A stretch of DNA of 64,000 bases from an uncultured Chloroflexia bacterium. Lineage in GTDB: Bacteria; Chloroflexota; Limnocylindria; QHBO01. This document shows, piece after piece, positions 6,516 through 52,059 of this stretch. Position 1 is the first letter of the stretch; the number at the start of each line of letters is the position of its first letter. The stretch spans positions 771,021 to 835,020 of the forward strand of contig CAWHEV010000010.1 in NCBI GenBank assembly GCA_963828485.1. Direction: 5' to 3'. The notes under the pieces were generated by a model. That model was not told where the DNA came from. It saw only the letters and a list, made by a program, of their open reading frames with translations, and made no database searches. The position numbers were made by a program, and so were the translations under genes.

Positions 6516-7281
6516 GCGCGCGATCGGCCGATACCGGCGCTGGTACTCGCGCCTCATTCGCCTCTACCCGAGACATTTCCGTCAGCGCTTCGGCGAGCCG
6601 ATGGCGCAGACCTTCACCGATCTCATCAGCGAGCGTCGCGACGCGAACCGAGGGCTCCACACCTTCGCCTTCGGTGCGTTCGTCGAGACCTCGGCGGGAA
6701 TCATGAGGGAGAACATGTCACAGCTGATGCAGTCCAAGAACTATCTCCGCTGGGTGCTCATCACCGCGACGCTCCTGGCCGTTCCGCTCCTCGCCATGGT
6801 CCTGAACCTCGCGGTCCCCGATCCCGGCAGCGGCACCGACAGCGTGAACTGGGGCCCGATGGACTTCGCCATCATGGGTGTGCTCATCCTGGGCAGCGGC
6901 CTCCTGTACGAGTACGCGAGCACGCGGGCCGGCTCCATCGTCCAGAAGGCCGCGGTCGGCATCGCCGTCGGCGCAGGCTTCCTGCTGATCTGGGTCAACC
7001 TCGCGGTCGGGATGGTCGGCGACGAGGGCAACGCGGCGAACCTGATGTACCTGTTCGTGCTGTTCGTTGCCATCATCGGCGCCGCGATCTCGCGCTTCGA
7101 GCCGCGCGAGGCATCGATCGCGATGTTCGCTACGGCAGGCGCTCAGATCGCGGTCGTCGTCATCGCACTGGTGGGCGGACTCGAACCGGAGCTGCGGGCG
7201 GACGCGTTCTTCATCGCAGCGTGGGTCGCATCGGGCCTGTTGTTCCGGCGTGCCAGCTTGGAGTCCGCTCCCGCGATCTAG
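6499..7281 (+). CDS. PadR-associated membrane protein with permease prefix domain 1-like N-terminus
   Basis: N-terminus RYRRWYSRLIRLYPRHFRQRFGEPMAQTFTDLI matches the ..LYPR.FR.RFGEEM..F.D. prefix motif. It is followed by about 6 TM helices and overlaps the padR stop. Confidence 0.7.
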   Translation: MPMGSERAIGRYRRWYSRLIRLYPRHFRQRFGEPMAQTFTDLISERRDANRGLHTFAFGAFVETSAGIMRENMSQLMQSKNYLRWVLITATLLAVPLLAMVLNLAVPDPGSGTDSVNWGPMDFAIMGVLILGSGLLYEYASTRAGSIVQKAAVGIAVGAGFLLIWVNLAVGMVGDEGNAANLMYLFVLFVAIIGAAISRFEPREASIAMFATAGAQIAVVVIALVGGLEPELRADAFFIAAWVASGLLFRRASLESAPAI

Positions 7282-7365
7282 ACCTATCCGTATGCTGCAG
7301 GCATGGCAGCAGATGAGGGCCTCGCAAATAAAGGGCCGCTCGTGAGCCAGCTCCCGGCGGATCGG

Positions 7366-8067
7366 ATGATCCCGATCCTGCCGTCCCGGTCGATCGACGA
7401 CCAGATCGACTTCTACGAGGCGCTCGGATTCGAGGTGACATATCGGCAGAAGACGCCGAACGTCTTCGCCGCCGTGCAGCGCGGCGCGATCGAGCTCCAA
7501 TTCTTCGTGCTCAAGGGCTATGAGCCGGCCAATTCGTACAGCACCTGCTACGTGATGGTCTCCAATGTCGACGAGCTGTACGCGGACTTCCGGGCCGGCC
7601 TGAAGCAAGCGCTTGGAAGAATTCCGAGCCGCGGCATCCCCCGCATCGGCGCGATCGGCGACATGTCGTACGGCGTGCGCCAATTCCTGCTGACCGATCC
7701 GGGCGGCAACATCATCCGCATCGGCCAGCCGCTGGAGAAGGCCGACGGCGCCGAGACGGCAACCCAGCCGCTCCCCCGCCTGGAGCGCGCCCTCGAGGCC
7801 GCCAGGCTGCTCCTCTACTCGAAGGTCGACCCCGAGACGACGGCCCGGGTCATCGACGACGCCCTCGCCGCAACCCCCGATGCGTCGAAGGTGCTCCGCG
7901 TCCAGGCGCGCATCCTCCGCGCCGATGCAGCGAACGCAATCGGAGACGACGCGCTCGCTCGAGCGCTGCTGGACGAGGCGGCCAGCATCAGGCTCGGAGA
8001 CGCCGACCAGGCGAGGATCGCCGACGATCTCACGCGCGCCGAGGAGCTGCGCGGCTCACTCGACTGA
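7366..8067 (+). CDS. VOC (glyoxalase/bleomycin-resistance) family protein with Ala-rich C-terminal extension
   Basis: MIPILPSRSIDDQIDFYEALGFEV..GNIIRI is the VOC beta-alpha-beta fold. The track ORF starts at 7303, which is an alternative start. Confidence 0.7.
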   Translation: MIPILPSRSIDDQIDFYEALGFEVTYRQKTPNVFAAVQRGAIELQFFVLKGYEPANSYSTCYVMVSNVDELYADFRAGLKQALGRIPSRGIPRIGAIGDMSYGVRQFLLTDPGGNIIRIGQPLEKADGAETATQPLPRLERALEAARLLLYSKVDPETTARVIDDALAATPDASKVLRVQARILRADAANAIGDDALARALLDEAASIRLGDADQARIADDLTRAEELRGSLD

Positions 8068-8727
8068 CTCGGACGTCTCCCGCATCGGTGCACCATCGGG
8101 CCAGGCGGCGATGCAGACCTTGTTGCCCGATCGATCAGCCAGGATCCACGAGCTCGGCGCCTCTGAATCGTCGACCACCGTTCCACCGGCGGCGACCGCC
8201 GCGTGCATTCGTGCCTCGGCCCGGTCGCGAGCGACCGAGACGTCGATGTGCATCGCGTGGCGGAGCGATTTTTCCGGATCCAGGTCCTGCATCCAGACTG
8301 TGGAGCCCTGACCGTTCGGATCGAGGCAATTGTCCTCGTGCAGCGGCGCATAGCCGAGGACGGCGCGCCAGAACCCGAGGTCGATCGCGTCAGGCTTGGC
8401 GGCGACAGCCACTTGGACCTCCTGAACCGCGCTGCGGTCTGCGGTGGCGCCGTGCTCTCGCGCCAGGGCCGAGATGGCTTTCGCGACCTCGACGTGCCGG
8501 GCTTCCGTCCCCCACATCTCCCTGGTGATCTTCACGGTGAGGCGGTCGGAGGCGGCCGTCAGCAGCGTTCGTGGCTCCAGGCCCGGCACATCGGCCACCG
8601 CCGCCGCCAGACGCGCGGCTTCGGCGAGGCTCCCCACCCTGAACACCGCGGTCGGACCGCCATGGAGGACCACCCAATCGTCGACGTCATCGGCGGAGAG
8701 GAATTCACGCCAGCCCTGTTCGCTCAT
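8056..8727 (-). CDS. PCD/DCoH-like domain fused to VOC domain protein
   Basis: N-terminus DDWVVLHGGPTAVFRVGSLAEAARLAAAV..RLTVKITREMWG is pterin-4a-carbinolamine dehydratase-like. C-terminus FWRAVLGYAPLHEDN..HIDVSV..GGTVVDD..WILADRSGNKVCI is VOC. Paralog of the 35047-35724 gene. Confidence 0.75.
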   Translation of the reverse strand: MSEQGWREFLSADDVDDWVVLHGGPTAVFRVGSLAEAARLAAAVADVPGLEPRTLLTAASDRLTVKITREMWGTEARHVEVAKAISALAREHGATADRSAVQEVQVAVAAKPDAIDLGFWRAVLGYAPLHEDNCLDPNGQGSTVWMQDLDPEKSLRHAMHIDVSVARDRAEARMHAAVAAGGTVVDDSEAPSSWILADRSGNKVCIAAWPDGAPMRETSESVE

Positions 8728-13732: not shown

Positions 13733-14374
13733 TCACTTCACGACGCGGTACTTGAGGTGCGCCACCCCCGGCGCCTCGATCGTGCGGAGCTCCTCGAGCT
13801 TCAGAGCCGGGCCGACGCCCTCGAAGAGGCGCGCGCCGCCGCCCAGAAGGAGCGGGACGATGTGGAGCTCCACCTCGTCGACGAGGCCGGCCGCCAGATA
13901 CTGATTGATGACGTCGGCGCCGCCGCCGATGAAGACGTCCTTGTCGCCGGCAGCGGCCCGCGCTTGCTCGAGGGCGGACTCGATGCCATCGGTAACGAAG
14001 GTGAAGGTCGTGTCAGACAGGGTCAGTGGCTCGCGCTCGTGATGGGTGAGGACGAAGACCGGCTTGTGAAACGGCGGCTCGTCACCCCACCAGCCACGCC
14101 ACGGATCGTCGCCCCATTCGCCGCGGGTCGCGGGACCGAACTTGCCCCGACCCATGATCTCGGCCCCGACGTTGGCGTGCTCCTCTTTCACGATATCGCT
14201 GCTGGCGTCCTCCTCGCCACCCTCCAGGCCGGCGGCCTCGCGCCACGCCCTCAGCCTGACCAGCCAGTTGTGAAGGTCTTCGCCGCCCTCACCTAGCGGG
14301 TCCTTCTGGCTCTGGTTCGGCCCGGCGACGTAGCCGTCCAGCGAGGTCGAGATGTGCACTCGTACCTTGCTCAT
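13733..14374 (-). CDS. dihydrofolate reductase-like (RibD C-terminal domain) family protein
   Basis: MSKVRVHISTSLDGYVAGPN..FIGGGADVINQYLAAGLVDEVELHIVPLLLGGGARLFE. Confidence 0.8.
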   Translation of the reverse strand: MSKVRVHISTSLDGYVAGPNQSQKDPLGEGGEDLHNWLVRLRAWREAAGLEGGEEDASSDIVKEEHANVGAEIMGRGKFGPATRGEWGDDPWRGWWGDEPPFHKPVFVLTHHEREPLTLSDTTFTFVTDGIESALEQARAAAGDKDVFIGGGADVINQYLAAGLVDEVELHIVPLLLGGGARLFEGVGPALKLEELRTIEAPGVAHLKYRVVK

Positions 14375-23068: not shown

Positions 23069-23316
23069 GGTTGTACTCCTCTTGGTAGCGGCCACCTCGT
23101 GGCCGCGGGCCAGCTCCTGAAGACGGGAACGGCAGGTGGTGGACCTTTGGCGTCATGGACGCACCTGGACATCCCGACGATACGTCTCGTTCGGGGCATC
23201 ACAAGCGCCAATTCGCACGGGTCCGACCAAGCCAATGCGGTGAATGGGTCGAGTTCCGCGGCCCCTTCCGGTCCGCTACTTGCACGCGCTTCACCTTGGA
23301 AGGAGCGCCGAAACAC

Positions 23317-23796
23317 ATGAACGCTCGAGACATGCCCGCCCGCTCGGCCGACACCGACGGGGCGCCGCGTTGGGTGACGATGTTCACCCCCCTTGCCAAG
23401 TTGCTGCTGAAAGCGGGCATTCCGCTTGGCCCCAACGGGCTGATCACCATTCGAGGCCGGAAGAGCGGCGTGCCCCGCTCGAACCCGGTCGCGATCATCG
23501 AGTACTCGGGCAGACGATGGATCTGGGCGCCGTGGGGCGAGGTCCAATGGGTCCGCAACCTGCGCGCCGCCCGCAAGGCGACCGTCACCCGACGCGGCCG
23601 GGTCGAGGAGTTCGACGCAACCGAGCTGACTGCCGAGGAGCGCGTCGGCTTCTTCCGGGACGACCTCGGAGGCCTTGCGCGCAGCGTTCCGTTCGGTGTC
23701 TGGTTCATTCGAACCGTTGATGGCGTTGACCTGAACCATCCGGTGGAAGCGGCGCAGGGTCGACCGGTCTTCGAGCTCCAACCCGCTAACGGGTGA
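23317..23796 (+). CDS. deazaflavin (F420)-dependent nitroreductase-family protein (DDN-like)
   Basis: LLKAGIPLGPNGLITIRGRKSGVPRSNPVAIIEYSGRRWIWAPWGEVQWVRNLRAA. Confidence 0.8.
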   Translation: MNARDMPARSADTDGAPRWVTMFTPLAKLLLKAGIPLGPNGLITIRGRKSGVPRSNPVAIIEYSGRRWIWAPWGEVQWVRNLRAARKATVTRRGRVEEFDATELTAEERVGFFRDDLGGLARSVPFGVWFIRTVDGVDLNHPVEAAQGRPVFELQPANG

Positions 23797-23816
23797 AGCC
23801 GGGGCACCACGGGCGC

Positions 23817-24692
23817 TCAGCCGCCGCGGAGCCCGTGGAGCTTCTCCTGGTCCGCGATGATGTCGATCTCGACGATTCGCCCGTTGGAGACGGTGAACGC
23901 GGCGACGAGTGACAGGGCCGGGAACCGGACCAGCAGACCGGCCTCGCCGTTGACGACCACCGGCTCGGCTCGCGGGGCAGTGCCGCGGAATCCGCCGGCC
24001 CCGCGAGCCACGGCTTCGGCACCCCGGAGCGGTGGACCGGAGAACGCTCGCGGTCCGTTCGGCCCGCCATCGACCCGGAGCACCACATCGGGGTCCAGCA
24101 CGCGCAGCAGGCCCTCGAAGTCGCCGTCGCGTGCCGCGGCGAGGAAGGCGTCCACCGCTCGGCGCTGAACGGCGAGATCCGCGTCCGGCTGCGGCGCCTC
24201 GGCCCGTACGCGCCGGCGCGCGCGGCTCGCGAGCTGACGCGCCGCGGCCGGCGACCGCTCCACCACCGGAGCGATCTCGTCGAACGGCACACCGAACACG
24301 TCGTGGAGGACGAATGCGAGCCGTTCCGCCGGCGTCAGCGACTCGAGGACCACCAGCAGCGCGAGGCCGACCGAGTCAGCCATGATCGCGTCGCGCTCCG
24401 GCTCGGCATCGGTCGAGGTGCGGACGATCGGCTCCGGGAGCCACGAGCCGGTCAGCTGCTCACGGCGCGACTTCCGTCGGCGCAGCGCGTCGAGGCAGAT
24501 TCGGCCGACCACGACGGTCAGCCAGCCACGCAGGTCATCGGCCCCGCCCGGAGGGCTGCGGTCGAGCCGCAGCCAGGCTTCCTGCACGGCATCGTCCGCC
24601 TCGGAGACCGACCCGAGCATCCGATACCCAACCGCGCGCAGGTGCCCGCGGTGTCGCTCGAACTCCTGGGCCAGCAGGTCCTGTCGCGTCAC
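23817..24692 (-). CDS. ECF41-group RNA polymerase sigma factor with fused SnoaL-like C-terminal regulatory domain
   Basis: Sigma2/sigma4 regions RAVGYRMLGSVSEADDAVQEAW..LESLTPAERLAFVLHDVFGVPFDEIA. Linker TGSWLPEP resembles YVGPWL. C-terminus VDGGPNG..DQEKL resembles DGGGK/NPDKV. 291 aa. Confidence 0.8.
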   Translation of the reverse strand: MTRQDLLAQEFERHRGHLRAVGYRMLGSVSEADDAVQEAWLRLDRSPPGGADDLRGWLTVVVGRICLDALRRRKSRREQLTGSWLPEPIVRTSTDAEPERDAIMADSVGLALLVVLESLTPAERLAFVLHDVFGVPFDEIAPVVERSPAAARQLASRARRRVRAEAPQPDADLAVQRRAVDAFLAAARDGDFEGLLRVLDPDVVLRVDGGPNGPRAFSGPPLRGAEAVARGAGGFRGTAPRAEPVVVNGEAGLLVRFPALSLVAAFTVSNGRIVEIDIIADQEKLHGLRGG

Positions 24693-24744
24693 GTCGTCGT
24701 CCTGTCTCGGGTCGTCATGAGAGGAACACGGATCGGGCGCTCCC

Positions 24745-24815
24745 GGTGTGACATCGTCGCCGATCGACGTTCGCCGGTCACATCCGGCGGCGGTGCTTCG
24801 TGCTCAGTGTGACAA
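24745..24815. promoter_or_regulatory. divergent ECF41-type promoter pair (TGTCACA-N16-CGTG on each strand)
   Basis: Plus strand: gGTCACA-tccggcggcggtgctt-CGTG about 40 nt before ATG 24840. Minus strand: TGTCACA-ccgggagcgcccgatc-CGTG about 35 nt before the sigma start. A third TGTGACA lies at ~24808. Confidence 0.45.
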
Positions 24816-24839
24816 CGAACCACGACCGGAGGTCGACCC

Positions 24840-25220
24840 ATGCCCATGACCACCACGCCGAGGATCCTCCTGACCGGGGTGATCCTCGAGCTCACCCTCG
24901 CGACGGCGATCATCCACCTGACCCTGGGTGGCACGCTGTTCCTGCTCAATGCGGCGGGCTATCTCGCTCTCGCAGCCGCCTACCTGGTCGGAGCTGCGGC
25001 GCCGATGCCGGCCATCCGCCGGTTCGGCTGGCTTCCGAGGGCAGTGCTGGCGGCATACGCATCGCTCACGATCGCCGCCTACATCGTCATCGGCCCGTAC
25101 TTCATGCTCGGCTGGGCGACGAAGGGCATCGAGGTCGCGATCGTCCTGCTGGTGATCGCCGACCTGCTCATCGGCAGCGATGCGGGACGCGCCTCGCGGC
25201 GCCCACCGCGGAGCGCCTGA
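24840..25220 (+). CDS. small 4-TM membrane protein
   Basis: RILLTGVILELTLATAIIHLTLGGTLFLLNAAGYLALAAAYLVG. Sits downstream of the ECF41-like promoter. Confidence 0.6.
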   Translation: MPMTTTPRILLTGVILELTLATAIIHLTLGGTLFLLNAAGYLALAAAYLVGAAAPMPAIRRFGWLPRAVLAAYASLTIAAYIVIGPYFMLGWATKGIEVAIVLLVIADLLIGSDAGRASRRPPRSA

Positions 25221-25221
25221 G

Positions 25222-25671
25222 ATGGCAGCGACGCACTTCGATCCGTACGCGACCCTCGGCATCCCGGCGCGCGCAAGCCGGGAAGAGGCGGGACGAGCCC
25301 ACCGGCGCCTGGCGAAGGAGTTCCATCCCGACGTCAACCCCGGACCTGCGGCCGCAGAGCGGATGCGGCGCATCAACGAGGCGTGGCGGATCGTATCGGA
25401 CCCGACGGGACGTGCGCGGTACGACGCCGGACGTCATCCCGTGCCGTGGCCAGCCTCTGGCTACGGCACCGGCCACAGCCGGCCCGCGAGCAACGCGACG
25501 TGGACGACGTGGCCGGAGTCGCGCGGTTCAGCGACGAGCCGCATACGCCGCCCGACGCCGCTCCCGGTCGAACCCTCGTTCGGCGACCGGCCGGCGGTCC
25601 TCGTCGGCGTCACCGTGATACTGGGCTTGCTCTACTTGGTGGGAGCGTGGCTCGGAAGCCTCGCTCCGTGA
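25222..25671 (+). CDS. J-domain (DnaJ-like) protein with C-terminal TM anchor
   Basis: DPYATLGIPARASREEAGRAHRRLAKEFHPDVNPG..AERMRRINEAWRIVSDPTGRARYD (HPD motif). C-terminal LVGVTVILGLLYLVGAW. Starts 1 nt after the upstream stop, with a GGAG SD. Confidence 0.75.
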   Translation: MAATHFDPYATLGIPARASREEAGRAHRRLAKEFHPDVNPGPAAAERMRRINEAWRIVSDPTGRARYDAGRHPVPWPASGYGTGHSRPASNATWTTWPESRGSATSRIRRPTPLPVEPSFGDRPAVLVGVTVILGLLYLVGAWLGSLAP

Positions 25672-25761
25672 GCGGCGACGGAGGTCACTCGGCCCTCCAG
25701 CTCAAGCCGCGATGAGTTCCCAGGTCGCCGCCGGTCTCATCTGCAGAGGAGAGGAGGCGAC

Positions 25762-26325
25762 ATGGGCGACGTGGCGATCGACATGAGCATGTCACTGGAC
25801 GGCTACATCGCCGCACCCAACGACGTCCCGGGCGATGGCCTCGGCGAGGATGGGATGCGGCTCCACAACTGGGGATTCGACAACCCTGGCGTGTTCGAGC
25901 GGGTTTTCGACGGCCTGCTGGAGCAGACGGGCGCGGTGATCATGGGGCGCCGGACGTACGACAACTCGATCGTGGAGTGGGGCGACGGCGGTCCCGTAGG
26001 CGACGTCCGGTGCATCGTCGTCACCCACGACCCGCCCACGAGCGCCGGTCCCCTCTTCACGTTCGTCACCGATGGTGTCGAGAGCGCCCTCGCGAAGGCA
26101 CGCGAGTTCGCGGGCGACAAGCGCATCGGCGTCATGGGTGCCGACGTCGCCGGGCAGCTCCTCGCCGCGGGGCAGGTCGACGAGATCCGGATCCACCTGG
26201 TCGATGTACTGCTCGGCGGGGGCCGACGGATGTTCGAGGCGCTTCCGCAGCGGATCGAGCTGAAGCAGACGGAAGCCTACGAGGCCGGCGGTGTGACGCA
26301 CGTGGTGTACCGCGTCGATCACTGA
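25762..26325 (+). CDS. dihydrofolate reductase-like (RibD C-terminal domain) family protein
   Basis: MGDVAIDMSMSLDGYIAAPND..VMGADVAGQLLAAGQVDEIRIHLVDVLLGGGRRMFE. GAGGAGAGGAGG SD. Confidence 0.8.
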   Translation: MGDVAIDMSMSLDGYIAAPNDVPGDGLGEDGMRLHNWGFDNPGVFERVFDGLLEQTGAVIMGRRTYDNSIVEWGDGGPVGDVRCIVVTHDPPTSAGPLFTFVTDGVESALAKAREFAGDKRIGVMGADVAGQLLAAGQVDEIRIHLVDVLLGGGRRMFEALPQRIELKQTEAYEAGGVTHVVYRVDH

Positions 26326-42509: not shown

Positions 42510-42914
42510 TCACCCATTGAGGAGCTCGTCCCAGTTCGGAGGAACGCGACCTTCAGGTCCGGGGACAGGCTGCTCCTCGGGATGATGATGCGGGGCCGCC
42601 AGCAGCGGTCCGTCGACGTACTCGTCGGTGCGGTAGTCGTAGAACCACTCTTCACCGGGCTCGAACGACTGGATGACCGGGTGTGACGAGTCGGCCCTGT
42701 GGCGAGTCGCGTGCTGTGACGGGGACTGGTCGCAGCAGCCGACGTGGCCACATTGCGCACAGCGACGCAGGTGGAACCACCATCCGTCGCTCGCGGCACA
42801 CTCGACACACCCCTCCCCGCTCGGCGGCACCGAGGGGTCGATCGCGTCGAAGGATGGCGCCTGGTCTGTCACATGCGATACCTCGATGGCCTGACGCAAC
42901 CACTGTAGCCGCAC
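42510..42914 (-). CDS. UBP-type zinc-finger domain protein
   Basis: CVECAASDGWWFHLRRCAQCGHVGCCDQSPSQHATRHRADSSHPVI..WFYDY is a zf-UBP Cys/His ligand pattern. Confidence 0.7.
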   Translation of the reverse strand: MRLQWLRQAIEVSHVTDQAPSFDAIDPSVPPSGEGCVECAASDGWWFHLRRCAQCGHVGCCDQSPSQHATRHRADSSHPVIQSFEPGEEWFYDYRTDEYVDGPLLAAPHHHPEEQPVPGPEGRVPPNWDELLNG

Positions 42915-42948: not shown

Positions 42949-43674
42949 ATGGCTGACAATTCCGCACCGATCATTCTCGTCCCCGGGTTCTGGCTCGGGG
43001 CGTGGGCCTGGGACGACGTCGCCGCCGCGCTCCGTGCCGATGGCCACGACGTCACGGCGATCACGCTACCCGGTCTCGAGTCGAAGGACGCTGATCGCTC
43101 GTCGGTCAGCTTCACAGACCATGTCGACGCGATCGTGAGCGCCGTCGAGGCGGCCGCTTCGCCCGTGGTGCTCGCCGTGCACAGCGCGACCGGGTTCTCC
43201 GGATATGCCGCGTCCGACCGCGTGCCCGAGCGGATCGCCGCAATGGTCTATGTCGACACCGCTCCGGGGATCGGACCAGTCGACGCCGACTTCACTGACG
43301 ATGACAAGCCGATGGTGTGGGCGGAGATCGAGGAGGAAGAGAACCTCGACGGGATCAGCGACGAGCAGAAGGAGACGTTCCGCCAGCGGGCCGTGCCGGA
43401 GCCCGGCGGCGTCATGCGCGGCAGCGTCGAGCTGACGAACGAGGCGCGGCGCGACATCCCCAGCACCCTCATCTGCACGGGCTTCAGCGCCGAGCAGTAC
43501 CAGACCTACGCCCGCGAGCATCCGGACTGGGCGTTCCTGAAGGGCATCCCCGAGCTTCGCAACACCACCTGGGTCGACCTGCCGACGAGCCACTGGCCGA
43601 TGTGGTCGCGCCCGACCGAGCTCGCCCAGATCATCGGCGACGTTGCGAGGACGACCGCCACCGCGAGCCGCTGA
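42949..43674 (+). CDS. alpha/beta hydrolase
   Basis: PIILVPGFWLGAWAWDDVAAALRADGHDV..LAVHSATGFSGY. Confidence 0.75.
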   Translation: MADNSAPIILVPGFWLGAWAWDDVAAALRADGHDVTAITLPGLESKDADRSSVSFTDHVDAIVSAVEAAASPVVLAVHSATGFSGYAASDRVPERIAAMVYVDTAPGIGPVDADFTDDDKPMVWAEIEEEENLDGISDEQKETFRQRAVPEPGGVMRGSVELTNEARRDIPSTLICTGFSAEQYQTYAREHPDWAFLKGIPELRNTTWVDLPTSHWPMWSRPTELAQIIGDVARTTATASR

Positions 43675-46520: not shown

Positions 46521-47084
46521 ATGGGCCGATTGATCTACCTGATGAACGTGTCCCTCGACGGGTTCATCGAGACGGCTGATCACTCCCTCGACTGGGCGAG
46601 TGTCGACGACGAGCTCCACCAATGGTTCAACGACCACACACGAGGGCTCGACGCGACGATCTACGGGCGGCGCCTGTACGAGGGGATGTCCGCCCACTGG
46701 CCCACCGCGGATGCCGATCCGGCGGCCACCGATGTCATGCGCGAATTCGGGCGCATCTGGACCCCGATGCCCAAGGTCGTCTTCTCGAACAGCCTCGACC
46801 ACGTCGAGTACAACAGCCGGCTGGTTCGAGGCGACGTCCGTCCGGTCCTGGAGGACCTGCGGCGCGAGTTCCCCGGCGACATCGACGTCGCCGGGCCGGA
46901 CATCGCCGGCCAGTTCGTGCGTGCCGGCCTCGTCGACGAGTTCAGGCTCGTCGTCCATCCGGTGACGATCGCGGCCGGCACCCGATACTGGCCGATCCTC
47001 GAAGCGCCGTTGCCATTGCGTCTCACCGAGACGCGGACGTTCGGCTCGGGGGTCGTGATGCTGGCGTACGCGACCGTCACCTAG
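46521..47084 (+). CDS. dihydrofolate reductase-like (RibD C-terminal domain) family protein
   Basis: MGRLIYLMNVSLDGFIETAD..VAGPDIAGQFVRAGLVDEFRLVVHPVTIAAG. Confidence 0.8.
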   Translation: MGRLIYLMNVSLDGFIETADHSLDWASVDDELHQWFNDHTRGLDATIYGRRLYEGMSAHWPTADADPAATDVMREFGRIWTPMPKVVFSNSLDHVEYNSRLVRGDVRPVLEDLRREFPGDIDVAGPDIAGQFVRAGLVDEFRLVVHPVTIAAGTRYWPILEAPLPLRLTETRTFGSGVVMLAYATVT

Positions 47085-51518: not shown

Positions 51519-51639
51519 AGCGATCTGGCAAGCGGCACGCGTGCCATGCCGTCGATGCGGTCACATTCGCGTGGGTGCCCACGTGTTGTGTGGGACAGGC
51601 GCCACTCAGCCAGTCCCCTTTCGGAGGCTCCCAACATCC

Positions 51640-52059
51640 ATGTCACACGCTCATCCGCCCACACGCGGCGGAGAGGTGACGCGCGCGATCGCTCGTGTCA
51701 CCGCTCCACTGGGTCGTCCTCTGGCCGGACGGCGCTTCTTCCCCCTCTGGGCCGTGGTTCACCACCGCGGCCGCCGCACCGGAAGCCGGTACGAGGTCCC
51801 CGTCGCCATTCGAGTCTCCGACGAGGCATTCGTCGTCCCGCTGCCGTGGGGTGACCGCACGCAATGGCTCCGCAACGTCGTCTCGGCGGGCGGGTGCTCC
51901 ATCCGGTGGCGCGGGGTCGACCACCACGTCACGGATCCGCGGATCATCGGGCTGCCCGAGGCCGGTCCGGCGTTCAGCCCGGTCCAGCGCTGGGCGCTTC
52001 GAAACGCCGGCGTTTCCAGCTTCCTGCACCTCACCCGCGGCCCTGATGGCCGTGCCTGA
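51640..52059 (+). CDS. deazaflavin (F420)-dependent nitroreductase-family protein (DDN-like)
   Basis: FFPLWAVVHHRGRRTGSRYEVPVAIRVSDEAFVVPLPWGDRTQWLRNVVSAGGCSIRWRGV. Confidence 0.7.
   Translation: MSHAHPPTRGGEVTRAIARVTAPLGRPLAGRRFFPLWAVVHHRGRRTGSRYEVPVAIRVSDEAFVVPLPWGDRTQWLRNVVSAGGCSIRWRGVDHHVTDPRIIGLPEAGPAFSPVQRWALRNAGVSSFLHLTRGPDGRA

Follow-up and report, generated by a model that had tools for sequence, protein, structure and literature searches.

ECF41 is among the most widespread groups of extracytoplasmic function (ECF) sigma factors, and about 65% of its members are associated with a gene of the COE type, i.e. for a carboxymuconolactone decarboxylase (CMD), an oxidoreductase or an epimerase, an association that is not obligatory. 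We analysed a stretch of 64,000 nucleotides from an uncultured Chloroflexia bacterium (contig CAWHEV010000010.1; the whole stretch is called the window in the following), in which an ECF41-like sigma gene stands back to back with two genes for a small membrane protein and a J-domain protein with a membrane anchor. The closest known systems are those of the divergent '<ECF< >COE>' class, i.e. Ecf41Bli/ydfG, Ecf41Rsp/RSP_0606, RpoE9/SMb20029 of S. meliloti and SigJ of M. tuberculosis. The ECF41 group was defined by a sigma-2/sigma-4 core, a WLPEP motif in the linker between the two, a SnoaL-like C-terminal extension and the lack of a gene for an anti-sigma factor nearby (Wecke et al. 2012, PMC3426412). 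In that study promoters of the type TGTCACA/CGTC were verified experimentally. The factors of the group that have been characterised in B. licheniformis, R. sphaeroides and S. meliloti have a single CMD gene each under their control. Of 55 divergent '<ECF< >COE>' loci, 36 had the motif in front of the ECF gene and 41 had it in front of the COE gene (PMC3426412, Table 4). Hypothetical proteins occur among the motif-bearing neighbours as well, about 30% of ECF41 members are 'orphans', and some of the additional promoters predicted gave no response (PMC3426412). In those ECF41 proteins that have been characterised, control is exerted by the C-terminal extension of the protein itself and takes no second protein (PMC3426412, PMC8999054); no partner protein is known for the group (PMC3426412).

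The locus in the window shares with these systems the sigma core, the WLPEP linker, the SnoaL-like tail, the lack of a recognisable anti-sigma gene, the bipartite TGTCACA-N16-CGTx promoter in front of both divergent genes and a predicted regulon that is small and local. It differs in the predicted target. The sigma gene (23817..24692, minus strand; 291 aa counted from GTG 24692) is separated by an intergenic region of 147 bp (24693-24839) from the gene of a four-helix integral membrane protein (24840..25220, plus strand, 126 aa), which is followed by the gene of the J-domain protein (25222..25671, plus strand, 149 aa). We consider it likely that the locus is a self-contained ECF41 module, in which the sigma factor would regulate its own gene and induce the membrane protein together with a membrane-tethered Hsp70 co-chaperone.

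The assignment of the sigma factor to ECF41 is well supported by its domains, the SigJ family model, the alignment with a SigJ structure, the linker motif and the lack of a recognisable anti-sigma neighbour, and the preliminary description, which had named the SnoaL-like extension, the linker and the missing anti-sigma gene as hallmarks from the DNA alone, was right in each of them. Pfam assigned Sigma70_r2 to residues 11-75 and Sigma70_r4_2 to residues 111-161; the ECF model TIGR02937 was matched with a score of 62.4 at a cut-off of 42.9. The C-terminal extension, which had been put at roughly 100 aa, spans about 125 aa up to the terminal IADQEKL and contains a SnoaL_2 match at residues 180-248 with 28.0 bits, i.e. 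closely above the cut-off of 27. The NCBIfam model of the SigJ subfamily, NF007214, was passed with 277.9 bits (cut-off 271), while the score of 247.6 with the older model TIGR02957 remained under its cut-off of 323. TIGR02960, which we take to be an ECF56-type model, scored only 91.5. By its score above the curated SigJ model the protein is set apart from ECF56, ECF294, ECF295 and ECF205, the other groups with a SnoaL domain. The best match in the PDB was 5XE7, M. tuberculosis SigJ (E=9e-49), which aligned with residues 8-285 of 291 and thus covered the extension as a whole. In this alignment the linker REQLTGSWLPEPIV with its WLPEP motif (as LTGSWLPEP) is positioned opposite TGTWLPEPVV of SigJ. 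Pfam and NCBIfam did not detect an anti-sigma domain in the neighbours of the sigma gene, a search that is confined to recognisable domains and would pass over a novel type of anti-sigma factor. No further ECF41 gene is present in the window.

Three boxes of the type TGTCACA/TGTGACA are located in the 147-bp region as described before: box 1, TGTGACA (24747-24753), a perfect TGTCACA when read on the minus strand; box 2, GGTCACA (24776-24782, plus strand); and a third TGTGACA (24808..24814), again a perfect TGTCACA on the minus strand. Box 1 is the -35 element of a predicted, autoregulatory sigma promoter (24727..24753, minus strand), with TGTCACA at 24753->24747, a 16-nt spacer and a -10 CGTG at 24730->24727. 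Box 2 correspondingly forms the -35 element of a predicted promoter of the membrane/J-domain operon (24776..24802, plus strand), followed after 16 nt by CGTG at 24799-24802. The claim of an element, exactly 16 nt and CGTG on each strand was thus borne out. The agreement of 6/7 plus 3/4 positions with the consensus TGTCACA-N16-CGTC that had been given for both promoters applies to the plus strand; the minus-strand promoter is better with 7/7 plus 3/4. In the window TGTCACA-N16-CGTS with up to one mismatch occurs five times on both strands taken together, compared to 2.25 times expected from shuffled sequences. Two of the five matches are inside the 147-bp region, each facing a gene, where about 0.005 would be expected by chance. 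Transcription would start about 7-9 nt after each CGTG, on the plus strand near 24809, and therefore the 5' untranslated region (UTR) of the membrane gene would measure about 31 nt. This is comparable to the 31-32 nt of the mapped promoters of ydfG and RSP_0606 (Wecke 2012, Table 5, PMC3426412).

The intergenic region was aligned with that of nine orthologous loci (L001, L002, L081-L084 and L086-L088). The mean column identity in the 10 loci was 0.97 for the -35 box on the sigma side, 0.99 for that on the operon side and 0.97 for each of the -10 boxes. The spacers had mean identities of 0.76 (sigma promoter) and 0.79 (operon promoter), and the stretch between the two -35 boxes 0.74 with insertions and deletions. 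Not a single insertion or deletion separates a -35 box from its -10 box in the aligned loci, i.e. N16 is fixed. Both promoters are also retained in a further locus, L003, the intergenic region of which is preserved up to and including TGTGACAACG. The two promoters are thus supported as putative conserved footprints of ECF41-type recognition, and in silico the reading of the motifs as ECF41 promoters in the preliminary description holds up.

The motif was then compared with that of more distant relatives, i.e. 80 loci with a 51-66%-identical ECF41 gene from Actinomycetota, Chloroflexota, Acidobacteriota and Proteobacteria; motifs were counted as near the sigma gene when they lay within about 100 nt of its start. 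GTCACA-N15-17-CGTC was found about 60 nt upstream of the sigma gene and on its strand in roughly 34 of 87 related loci, and on the opposite strand close to its start in roughly 25; about 35-40% of the 80 more distant ECF41 genes have the motif next to them. The remainder of the flanking DNA, about 0.7 Mb, contained only eight matches. A G in the first position of the -35 box, as in box 2, is common among the relatives. The last base of the -10 box distinguishes the clade of the window: every Limnocylindria orthologue carries CGTG at both promoters, apart from one CGTT, while all other relatives carry CGTC. The sigma factors differ in parallel in the sigma-2 loop (residues about 44-62; 24507-24563 on the minus strand), which is LDR(S/G)DPGGTDDLRGWLTV in the CGTG clade compared to LSRxDxxx(V/I)ENLGGWLTT in the CGTC-type relatives. 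The two changes are consistent with a co-evolution of sigma factor and -10 box and make the sigma-2 loop a candidate specificity determinant of the last -10 base.

The promoters in the window are arranged back to back with their -35 boxes 22 bp apart, in contrast to the face-to-face pairs of many CGTC-type loci (e.g. L008, L015, L028, L030, L040, L058, L061 and L065). Those pairs are located in the approximately 60 nt ahead of the sigma start. The -35 box of the divergent gene, which reads TGTGAC on the sigma strand, is placed between the Shine-Dalgarno sequence and the ATG of the sigma gene, and the -10 boxes of the pair make up a near-palindrome, CGTCAT...ATGACG.

The gene pair next to the sigma gene, which had been noted as a prospective target on account of its facing promoter, is a conserved part of the locus: membrane gene and J gene occur in synteny with the sigma gene in 10 loci, the flanking genes of which are unrelated. 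In L003 an F420H2_quin_red-like gene takes the place of the membrane gene, and both the promoter and the J-domain/transmembrane (TM) protein are retained. Because it persists despite the swapped first gene of the operon, the J-protein is the constant partner of the module. All 11 loci come from a single class, Limnocylindria, with 82-91% identity between the sigma proteins. The closest genomic relatives of the window are metagenome-assembled genomes of Chloroflexota / Candidatus Limnocylindria with a sigma identity of 86-88%, and the membrane protein likewise has its named homologues in this lineage.

The 149-aa protein has a J domain at residues 7-68 (Pfam DnaJ, 59.3 bits at a cut-off of 27.8) with the HPD motif at residues 35-37, which is invariant in the eight orthologues aligned. 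The domain is connected by a linker with the conserved stretch WTTWPESR...PSFGDRP to the single hydrophobic segment of the hydropathy plot at the extreme C-terminus (residues 126-144). The J domain was the only Pfam match; DnaJ_C, the zinc finger and the G/F region are absent, and the DnaJ equivalog models scored far under their cut-offs. Because it combines a J domain carrying HPD with a linker and one C-terminal helix, the protein is by its predicted features a tail-anchored class-C J-protein. The most plausible start of the gene is ATG 25222, which is located behind GGAG and 1 nt past the TGA of the membrane gene (25218-25220). The same TGAnATG junction, TGAgATG in the window, was also called in L086, L087 and L088, and is in line with the translational coupling of the two genes that had been proposed. 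The GGAG and this junction favour ATG 25222 over an alternative start at 25180, which is probably not used.

Membrane-anchored J-domain proteins of bacteria are exemplified by DjlA, DjlB and DjlC of E. coli. As in these, a J domain with HPD is combined with a membrane anchor, and the G/F, zinc-finger and C-terminal client-binding domains are missing; a localisation of DnaK activity to the membrane is presumably a role that they share. However, there is no similarity outside the J domain, and the NCBIfam DjlA model reached only E=0.0065 over 31 residues. The orientation is opposite to that of DjlA, with an N-terminal J domain and a C-terminal tail anchor in the protein of the window. A further difference is the genetic coupling to a four-TM protein and an ECF sigma factor.

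For the 126-aa membrane protein neither Pfam nor NCBIfam yielded a match, and DUF7475 was not matched at E<=1 (gathering score 31.3 bits). An AlphaFold model showed a confident bundle of four helices (pLDDT 92.9), which agrees with the four TM segments described before; a search of the PDB with this model returned generic helical bundles only, at E>=0.6, and was uninformative. There are 430 close homologues, and the family is a small one with 209 cluster representatives at 50% identity (E<=1e-3). DUF7475 was matched by 13 of the 72 relatives scanned (best E 1e-7), so that the protein may be addressed as a distant relative of this family of small four-helix membrane proteins; the link is indirect, via these 13 relatives, and the protein of the window itself fails the family model. 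A literature search retrieved no paper that mentions DUF7475. A C-terminal Cupredoxin_1 domain is present in five of the 72 relatives (P0128, P0172, P0212, P0216 and P0223), and the residues H26, N37, Y41 and E98 are near-invariant. The cupredoxin domains, and with them a His and a Glu in the helices that are near-invariant, hint at a copper or redox link of the family. Fusions of the membrane protein to a J domain were not found among distant homologues, the longer ones carrying cupredoxin domains. A metagenome scan with the membrane protein gave only five loci, and the contigs of distant homologues were of about 1 kb with little context. On one unrelated short contig a 66%-identical homologue is preceded by cGTCACA-N16-CGTA with no sigma gene adjoining.

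The motif-bearing neighbour in the window is not a COE gene, and the F420H2_quin_red family, to which the gene convergent to the sigma gene belongs, is not on the list of oxidoreductases of Wecke et al. (PMC3426412). The preliminary description had considered the pairing new with respect to the CMD, oxidoreductase and epimerase regulons. This stands for the J-domain target. A target outside the COE class alone does not make it new, since the gene facing the divergent motif in the relatives sampled is a CMD gene in L008, L041 and L045 and an epimerase gene in L059, but an MFS_1 transporter in L028, DoxX_2 in L040, an ABC_tran ATPase in L069 and L077 and another membrane protein in L030. By their predicted promoters, non-COE and membrane targets of ECF41 thus appear to be fairly common. 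Likewise, a double promoter in divergent loci, and with it the prediction of autoregulation, is already known for ECF41, because the motif had been counted before both genes in divergent loci (PMC3426412). Most of the ECF41 relatives scanned have no J-protein nearby, and a full-text literature search for J-domain, extracytoplasmic function and membrane-anchored in combination yielded no paper. A J-domain co-chaperone as a conserved neighbour and predicted target of ECF41 therefore looks undescribed. The other features that appear to be new are the clade-specific CGTG with the correlated change of the sigma-2 loop, an invariant -35-like third box at the predicted start and a sigma mRNA that is possibly leaderless.

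The third box lies 5 nt past the -10 box of the plus-strand promoter, where transcription of the membrane/J operon is predicted to start. All of its seven positions are invariant in the 10 loci, it is retained in L003 despite the different downstream gene, and it is absent from CGTC-type ECF41 loci. We found no -10 partner for it, i.e. no conserved CGT at N16 on either strand of the window and the 10-locus alignment. A reading of the box as an ECF41 promoter of the minus strand was thus rejected, since 16 nt downstream of it there is GCCG, within a stretch that varies, and no CGT at N15-17. A structure in the 5' UTR does not account for it either, as RNAalifold gave only a 5-bp hairpin at the ribosome binding site that excludes the box, and L003 has the box with unrelated downstream sequence. 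By inspection there was also no matching half-site at N6 for a CRP-like operator TGTGA-N6-TCACA. The box possibly is a competing sigma-4 site, the operator of another factor, or exerts an effect via the first transcribed bases.

The hairpin just mentioned, CGACC-GGA-GGTCG (24823..24835, plus strand), overlaps the Shine-Dalgarno sequence GGAGG at 24828-24832. It has five pairs, a predicted energy of -5.7 kcal/mol and one compensatory change, from C-G to U-A in L002, which is weak evidence for a conserved RNA element. On the sigma side an ATG (24718->24716, minus strand) follows exactly 8 nt after the sigma -10 box, and an ATG at this offset is present in 9/10 loci that yielded the motif. In L001, L002, L081, L082, L086 and L088 it is in frame and adds MTTP..DD to the sigma N-terminus. 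In the window, L003 and L087 it is out of frame with a TGA/GTG overlap, and L084 has ATT instead. The ATG in the window opens an upstream open reading frame of nine codons (24689..24718; MTTRDRTTT and a stop), the TGA of which overlaps the GTG start of the sigma gene as GTGA. Because the ATG is conserved exactly 8 nt after the -10 box, the arrangement suggests that the sigma mRNA is leaderless or nearly so.

A third ECF41-type promoter, GGTCACA-N16-CGTG (51559..51585, plus strand), is predicted at a distance of 27 kb from the sigma gene and 54 nt upstream of ATG 51640. The gene at 51640-52059 (plus strand) encodes a 139-aa protein of the deazaflavin (F420)-dependent oxidoreductase family; the Pfam match to F420H2_quin_red is weak at 17.5 bits, and source annotations call the homologues deazaflavin-dependent oxidoreductases. 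GGTCAC[A/G]-N16-CGT[A/G] occurs at the equivalent position before the orthologues on four contigs (L089-L092), and in L090 and L091 an ECF41 paralogue with 60% identity divergently adjoins the orthologue. The promoter at 51559 would belong either to a distal member of the regulon or to a target of a paralogous ECF41 factor encoded outside the window. A second ECF41 paralogue is also present in L001, a Chloroflexota genome bin (7272-8132, minus strand; 52% identical), about 3 kb from the orthologous sigma gene. TGTCACA-N16-CCTG at 42867-42893 (plus strand), 55 nt upstream of an alpha/beta-hydrolase gene (42949-43674), was set aside as an unlikely promoter because the CGT core of the -10 box is broken.

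The neighbours of the locus as annotated by Pfam and NCBIfam are F420H2_quin_red, an unannotated protein of 162 aa, the four-TM protein, the J-protein, RibD_C and DUF6194. The F420H2_quin_red-family gene (23155-23796, plus strand) is convergent to the sigma gene and lacks an ECF41 motif. Small genes of a redox or detoxification type are abundant around the locus and comprise, next to this gene and DUF6194, three RibD_C paralogues and glyoxalase-like open reading frames at about 50.5-52.5 kb; the coordinates listed for RibD_C/redox-type genes are 25762-26325 (plus strand), 13742-14374 (minus strand) and 46521-47069 (plus strand). The ECF41 motif accompanies only gene 51640 among them. A search of the region against Rfam gave no match at E<=1. 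Neither sigma-70-type promoters nor intrinsic terminators were found in 23700-25900; because the promoter scan used the E. coli consensus this point is a weak one for sigma-70.

From these data we infer transcription from the two motifs, the start sites, the partnership with DnaK and the inducing signal as follows. By analogy with the characterised ECF41 proteins, the fused SnoaL-like C-terminal domain would hold the sigma factor in check without an anti-sigma partner. Once active, the sigma factor with RNA polymerase would start at the two back-to-back promoters in the 147-bp region. Leftward transcription from TGTCACA-N16-CGTG would read the sigma gene in a positive autoregulation, probably as a leaderless or nearly leaderless mRNA. 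Rightward transcription from GGTCACA-N16-CGTG would yield the two-gene operon of the DUF7475-like four-helix protein and the translationally coupled J-protein. The J domain with its intact HPD motif may then draw DnaK/Hsp70 to the membrane on its cytoplasmic side. What results would likely be local chaperone capacity at the membrane under the stress that activates the sigma factor, which is probably of a redox or electrophilic kind as proposed for other ECF41 regulons.

Several points weigh against this reading. The organism is known only as a metagenome-assembled genome and the promoters are predicted. The -10 boxes end in G where the consensus has C, and we know of no ECF41 factor that has been tested on CGTG. 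The plus-strand -35 box begins with G, though this is shared by many relatives. The co-variation of loop and -10 box at the level of the clade is a single evolutionary event and not an independent replication. The sigma start codon is ambiguous because the conserved ATG is out of frame in the window, and the invariant third TGTCACA behind the plus-strand -10 box fits no simple model of two promoters, so that another factor might bind there. Finally, the conserved adjacency could mean that the membrane/J pair regulates the sigma factor, instead of or besides being its output.

If the two proteins were primarily regulators, the J-protein would pass on to DnaK, at the membrane, either the sigma factor or the SnoaL domain of it. 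The outcome would be a feedback by chaperone titration as for sigma-32, with the two proteins taking over the function of an anti-sigma factor. The J-protein is the only partner that is always retained, even where another gene opens the operon as in L003, and its layout of a small N-terminal, cytoplasmic helical domain, a linker and one TM helix superficially resembles single-pass anti-sigma factors. ECF41 factors also have no known partner protein (PMC3426412). Yet the domain at the N-terminus of the J-protein scores 59.3 bits as a genuine J domain, HPD included, and is not an anti-sigma domain, and control by the C-terminal extension suffices for the characterised ECF41 factors (PMC3426412, PMC8999054). 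The lack of a nearby J-protein in most relatives scanned also argues against it. Given the promoter that precedes them, the two genes would be a target at the least. No finding speaks directly against a regulatory role, and the support for it is limited to the conserved linkage. We regard this arrangement as unlikely. A variant keeps the pair as the target and lets the J-protein close a chaperone feedback on the sigma factor: DnaK at the membrane would couple the activity or stability of the sigma factor to the folding load of membrane proteins, again in a sigma-32-like manner, with the third TGTCACA as a self-limiting decoy for the holoenzyme. This is speculative and in our view improbable; if true, chaperone feedback plus a decoy box would amount to a kind of control that is new for ECF41.

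The boxes themselves may be read differently. Three alternating TGTGACA/GTCACA elements about 30 bp apart could be operators of a dimeric repressor or activator, with the likeness to ECF41 promoters being incidental or the boxes serving both roles. TGTnACA is near-palindromic, the centres of the boxes are 29.5 and 31 bp apart, i.e. about three helical turns, and conservation is highest in the third box (7/7 invariant), although it has no -10 partner. On the other hand, two of the three boxes are followed by CGTG at exactly N16 on the strand that is correct for the adjacent gene, free of insertions and deletions in 10 loci. Dozens of ECF41 genes from other phyla have the bipartite motif next to them, and it corresponds to a verified ECF41 promoter (PMC3426412), its -10 base co-varies with the sigma-2 loop in the relatives compared here, and the sigma gene is the only regulator gene in the conserved module. 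Operators in place of promoters are therefore doubtful. It is even more improbable that the motifs are relics, with the genes being transcribed by a housekeeping or other sigma factor and their linkage reflecting neutral synteny in a narrow clade. Some of the conservation could indeed be shared ancestry because all 11 loci are from Limnocylindria with sigma identities of 82-91%, and unresponsive extra promoters have been met with before (Wecke 2012, PMC3426412). However, the spacers and the stretch between the boxes have diverged (0.74-0.79, with insertions and deletions) in contrast to the boxes (0.97-1.00), the flanking genes differ among the loci, and a sigma-70-like promoter that could serve instead was not detected in the scan with the E. 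coli consensus, itself a weak point.

Thus we favour the view that the locus is a self-contained, autoregulated ECF41 module with a chaperone-linked membrane output, and as far as sequence analysis goes the interpretation in the preliminary description is supported. The known ECF41 model is not overturned; a known system is extended rather than a new one revealed. The conserved output of a membrane-tethered Hsp70 co-chaperone and a small membrane protein points to a role in membrane proteostasis, and thereby to a concrete phenotype. The clade-wide switch from CGTC to CGTG together with the sigma-2 loop would provide a natural pair for studying and engineering the promoter specificity of ECF sigma factors. 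For Candidatus Limnocylindria, to our knowledge an abundant soil lineage with no cultured members, the module would add a testable regulon.

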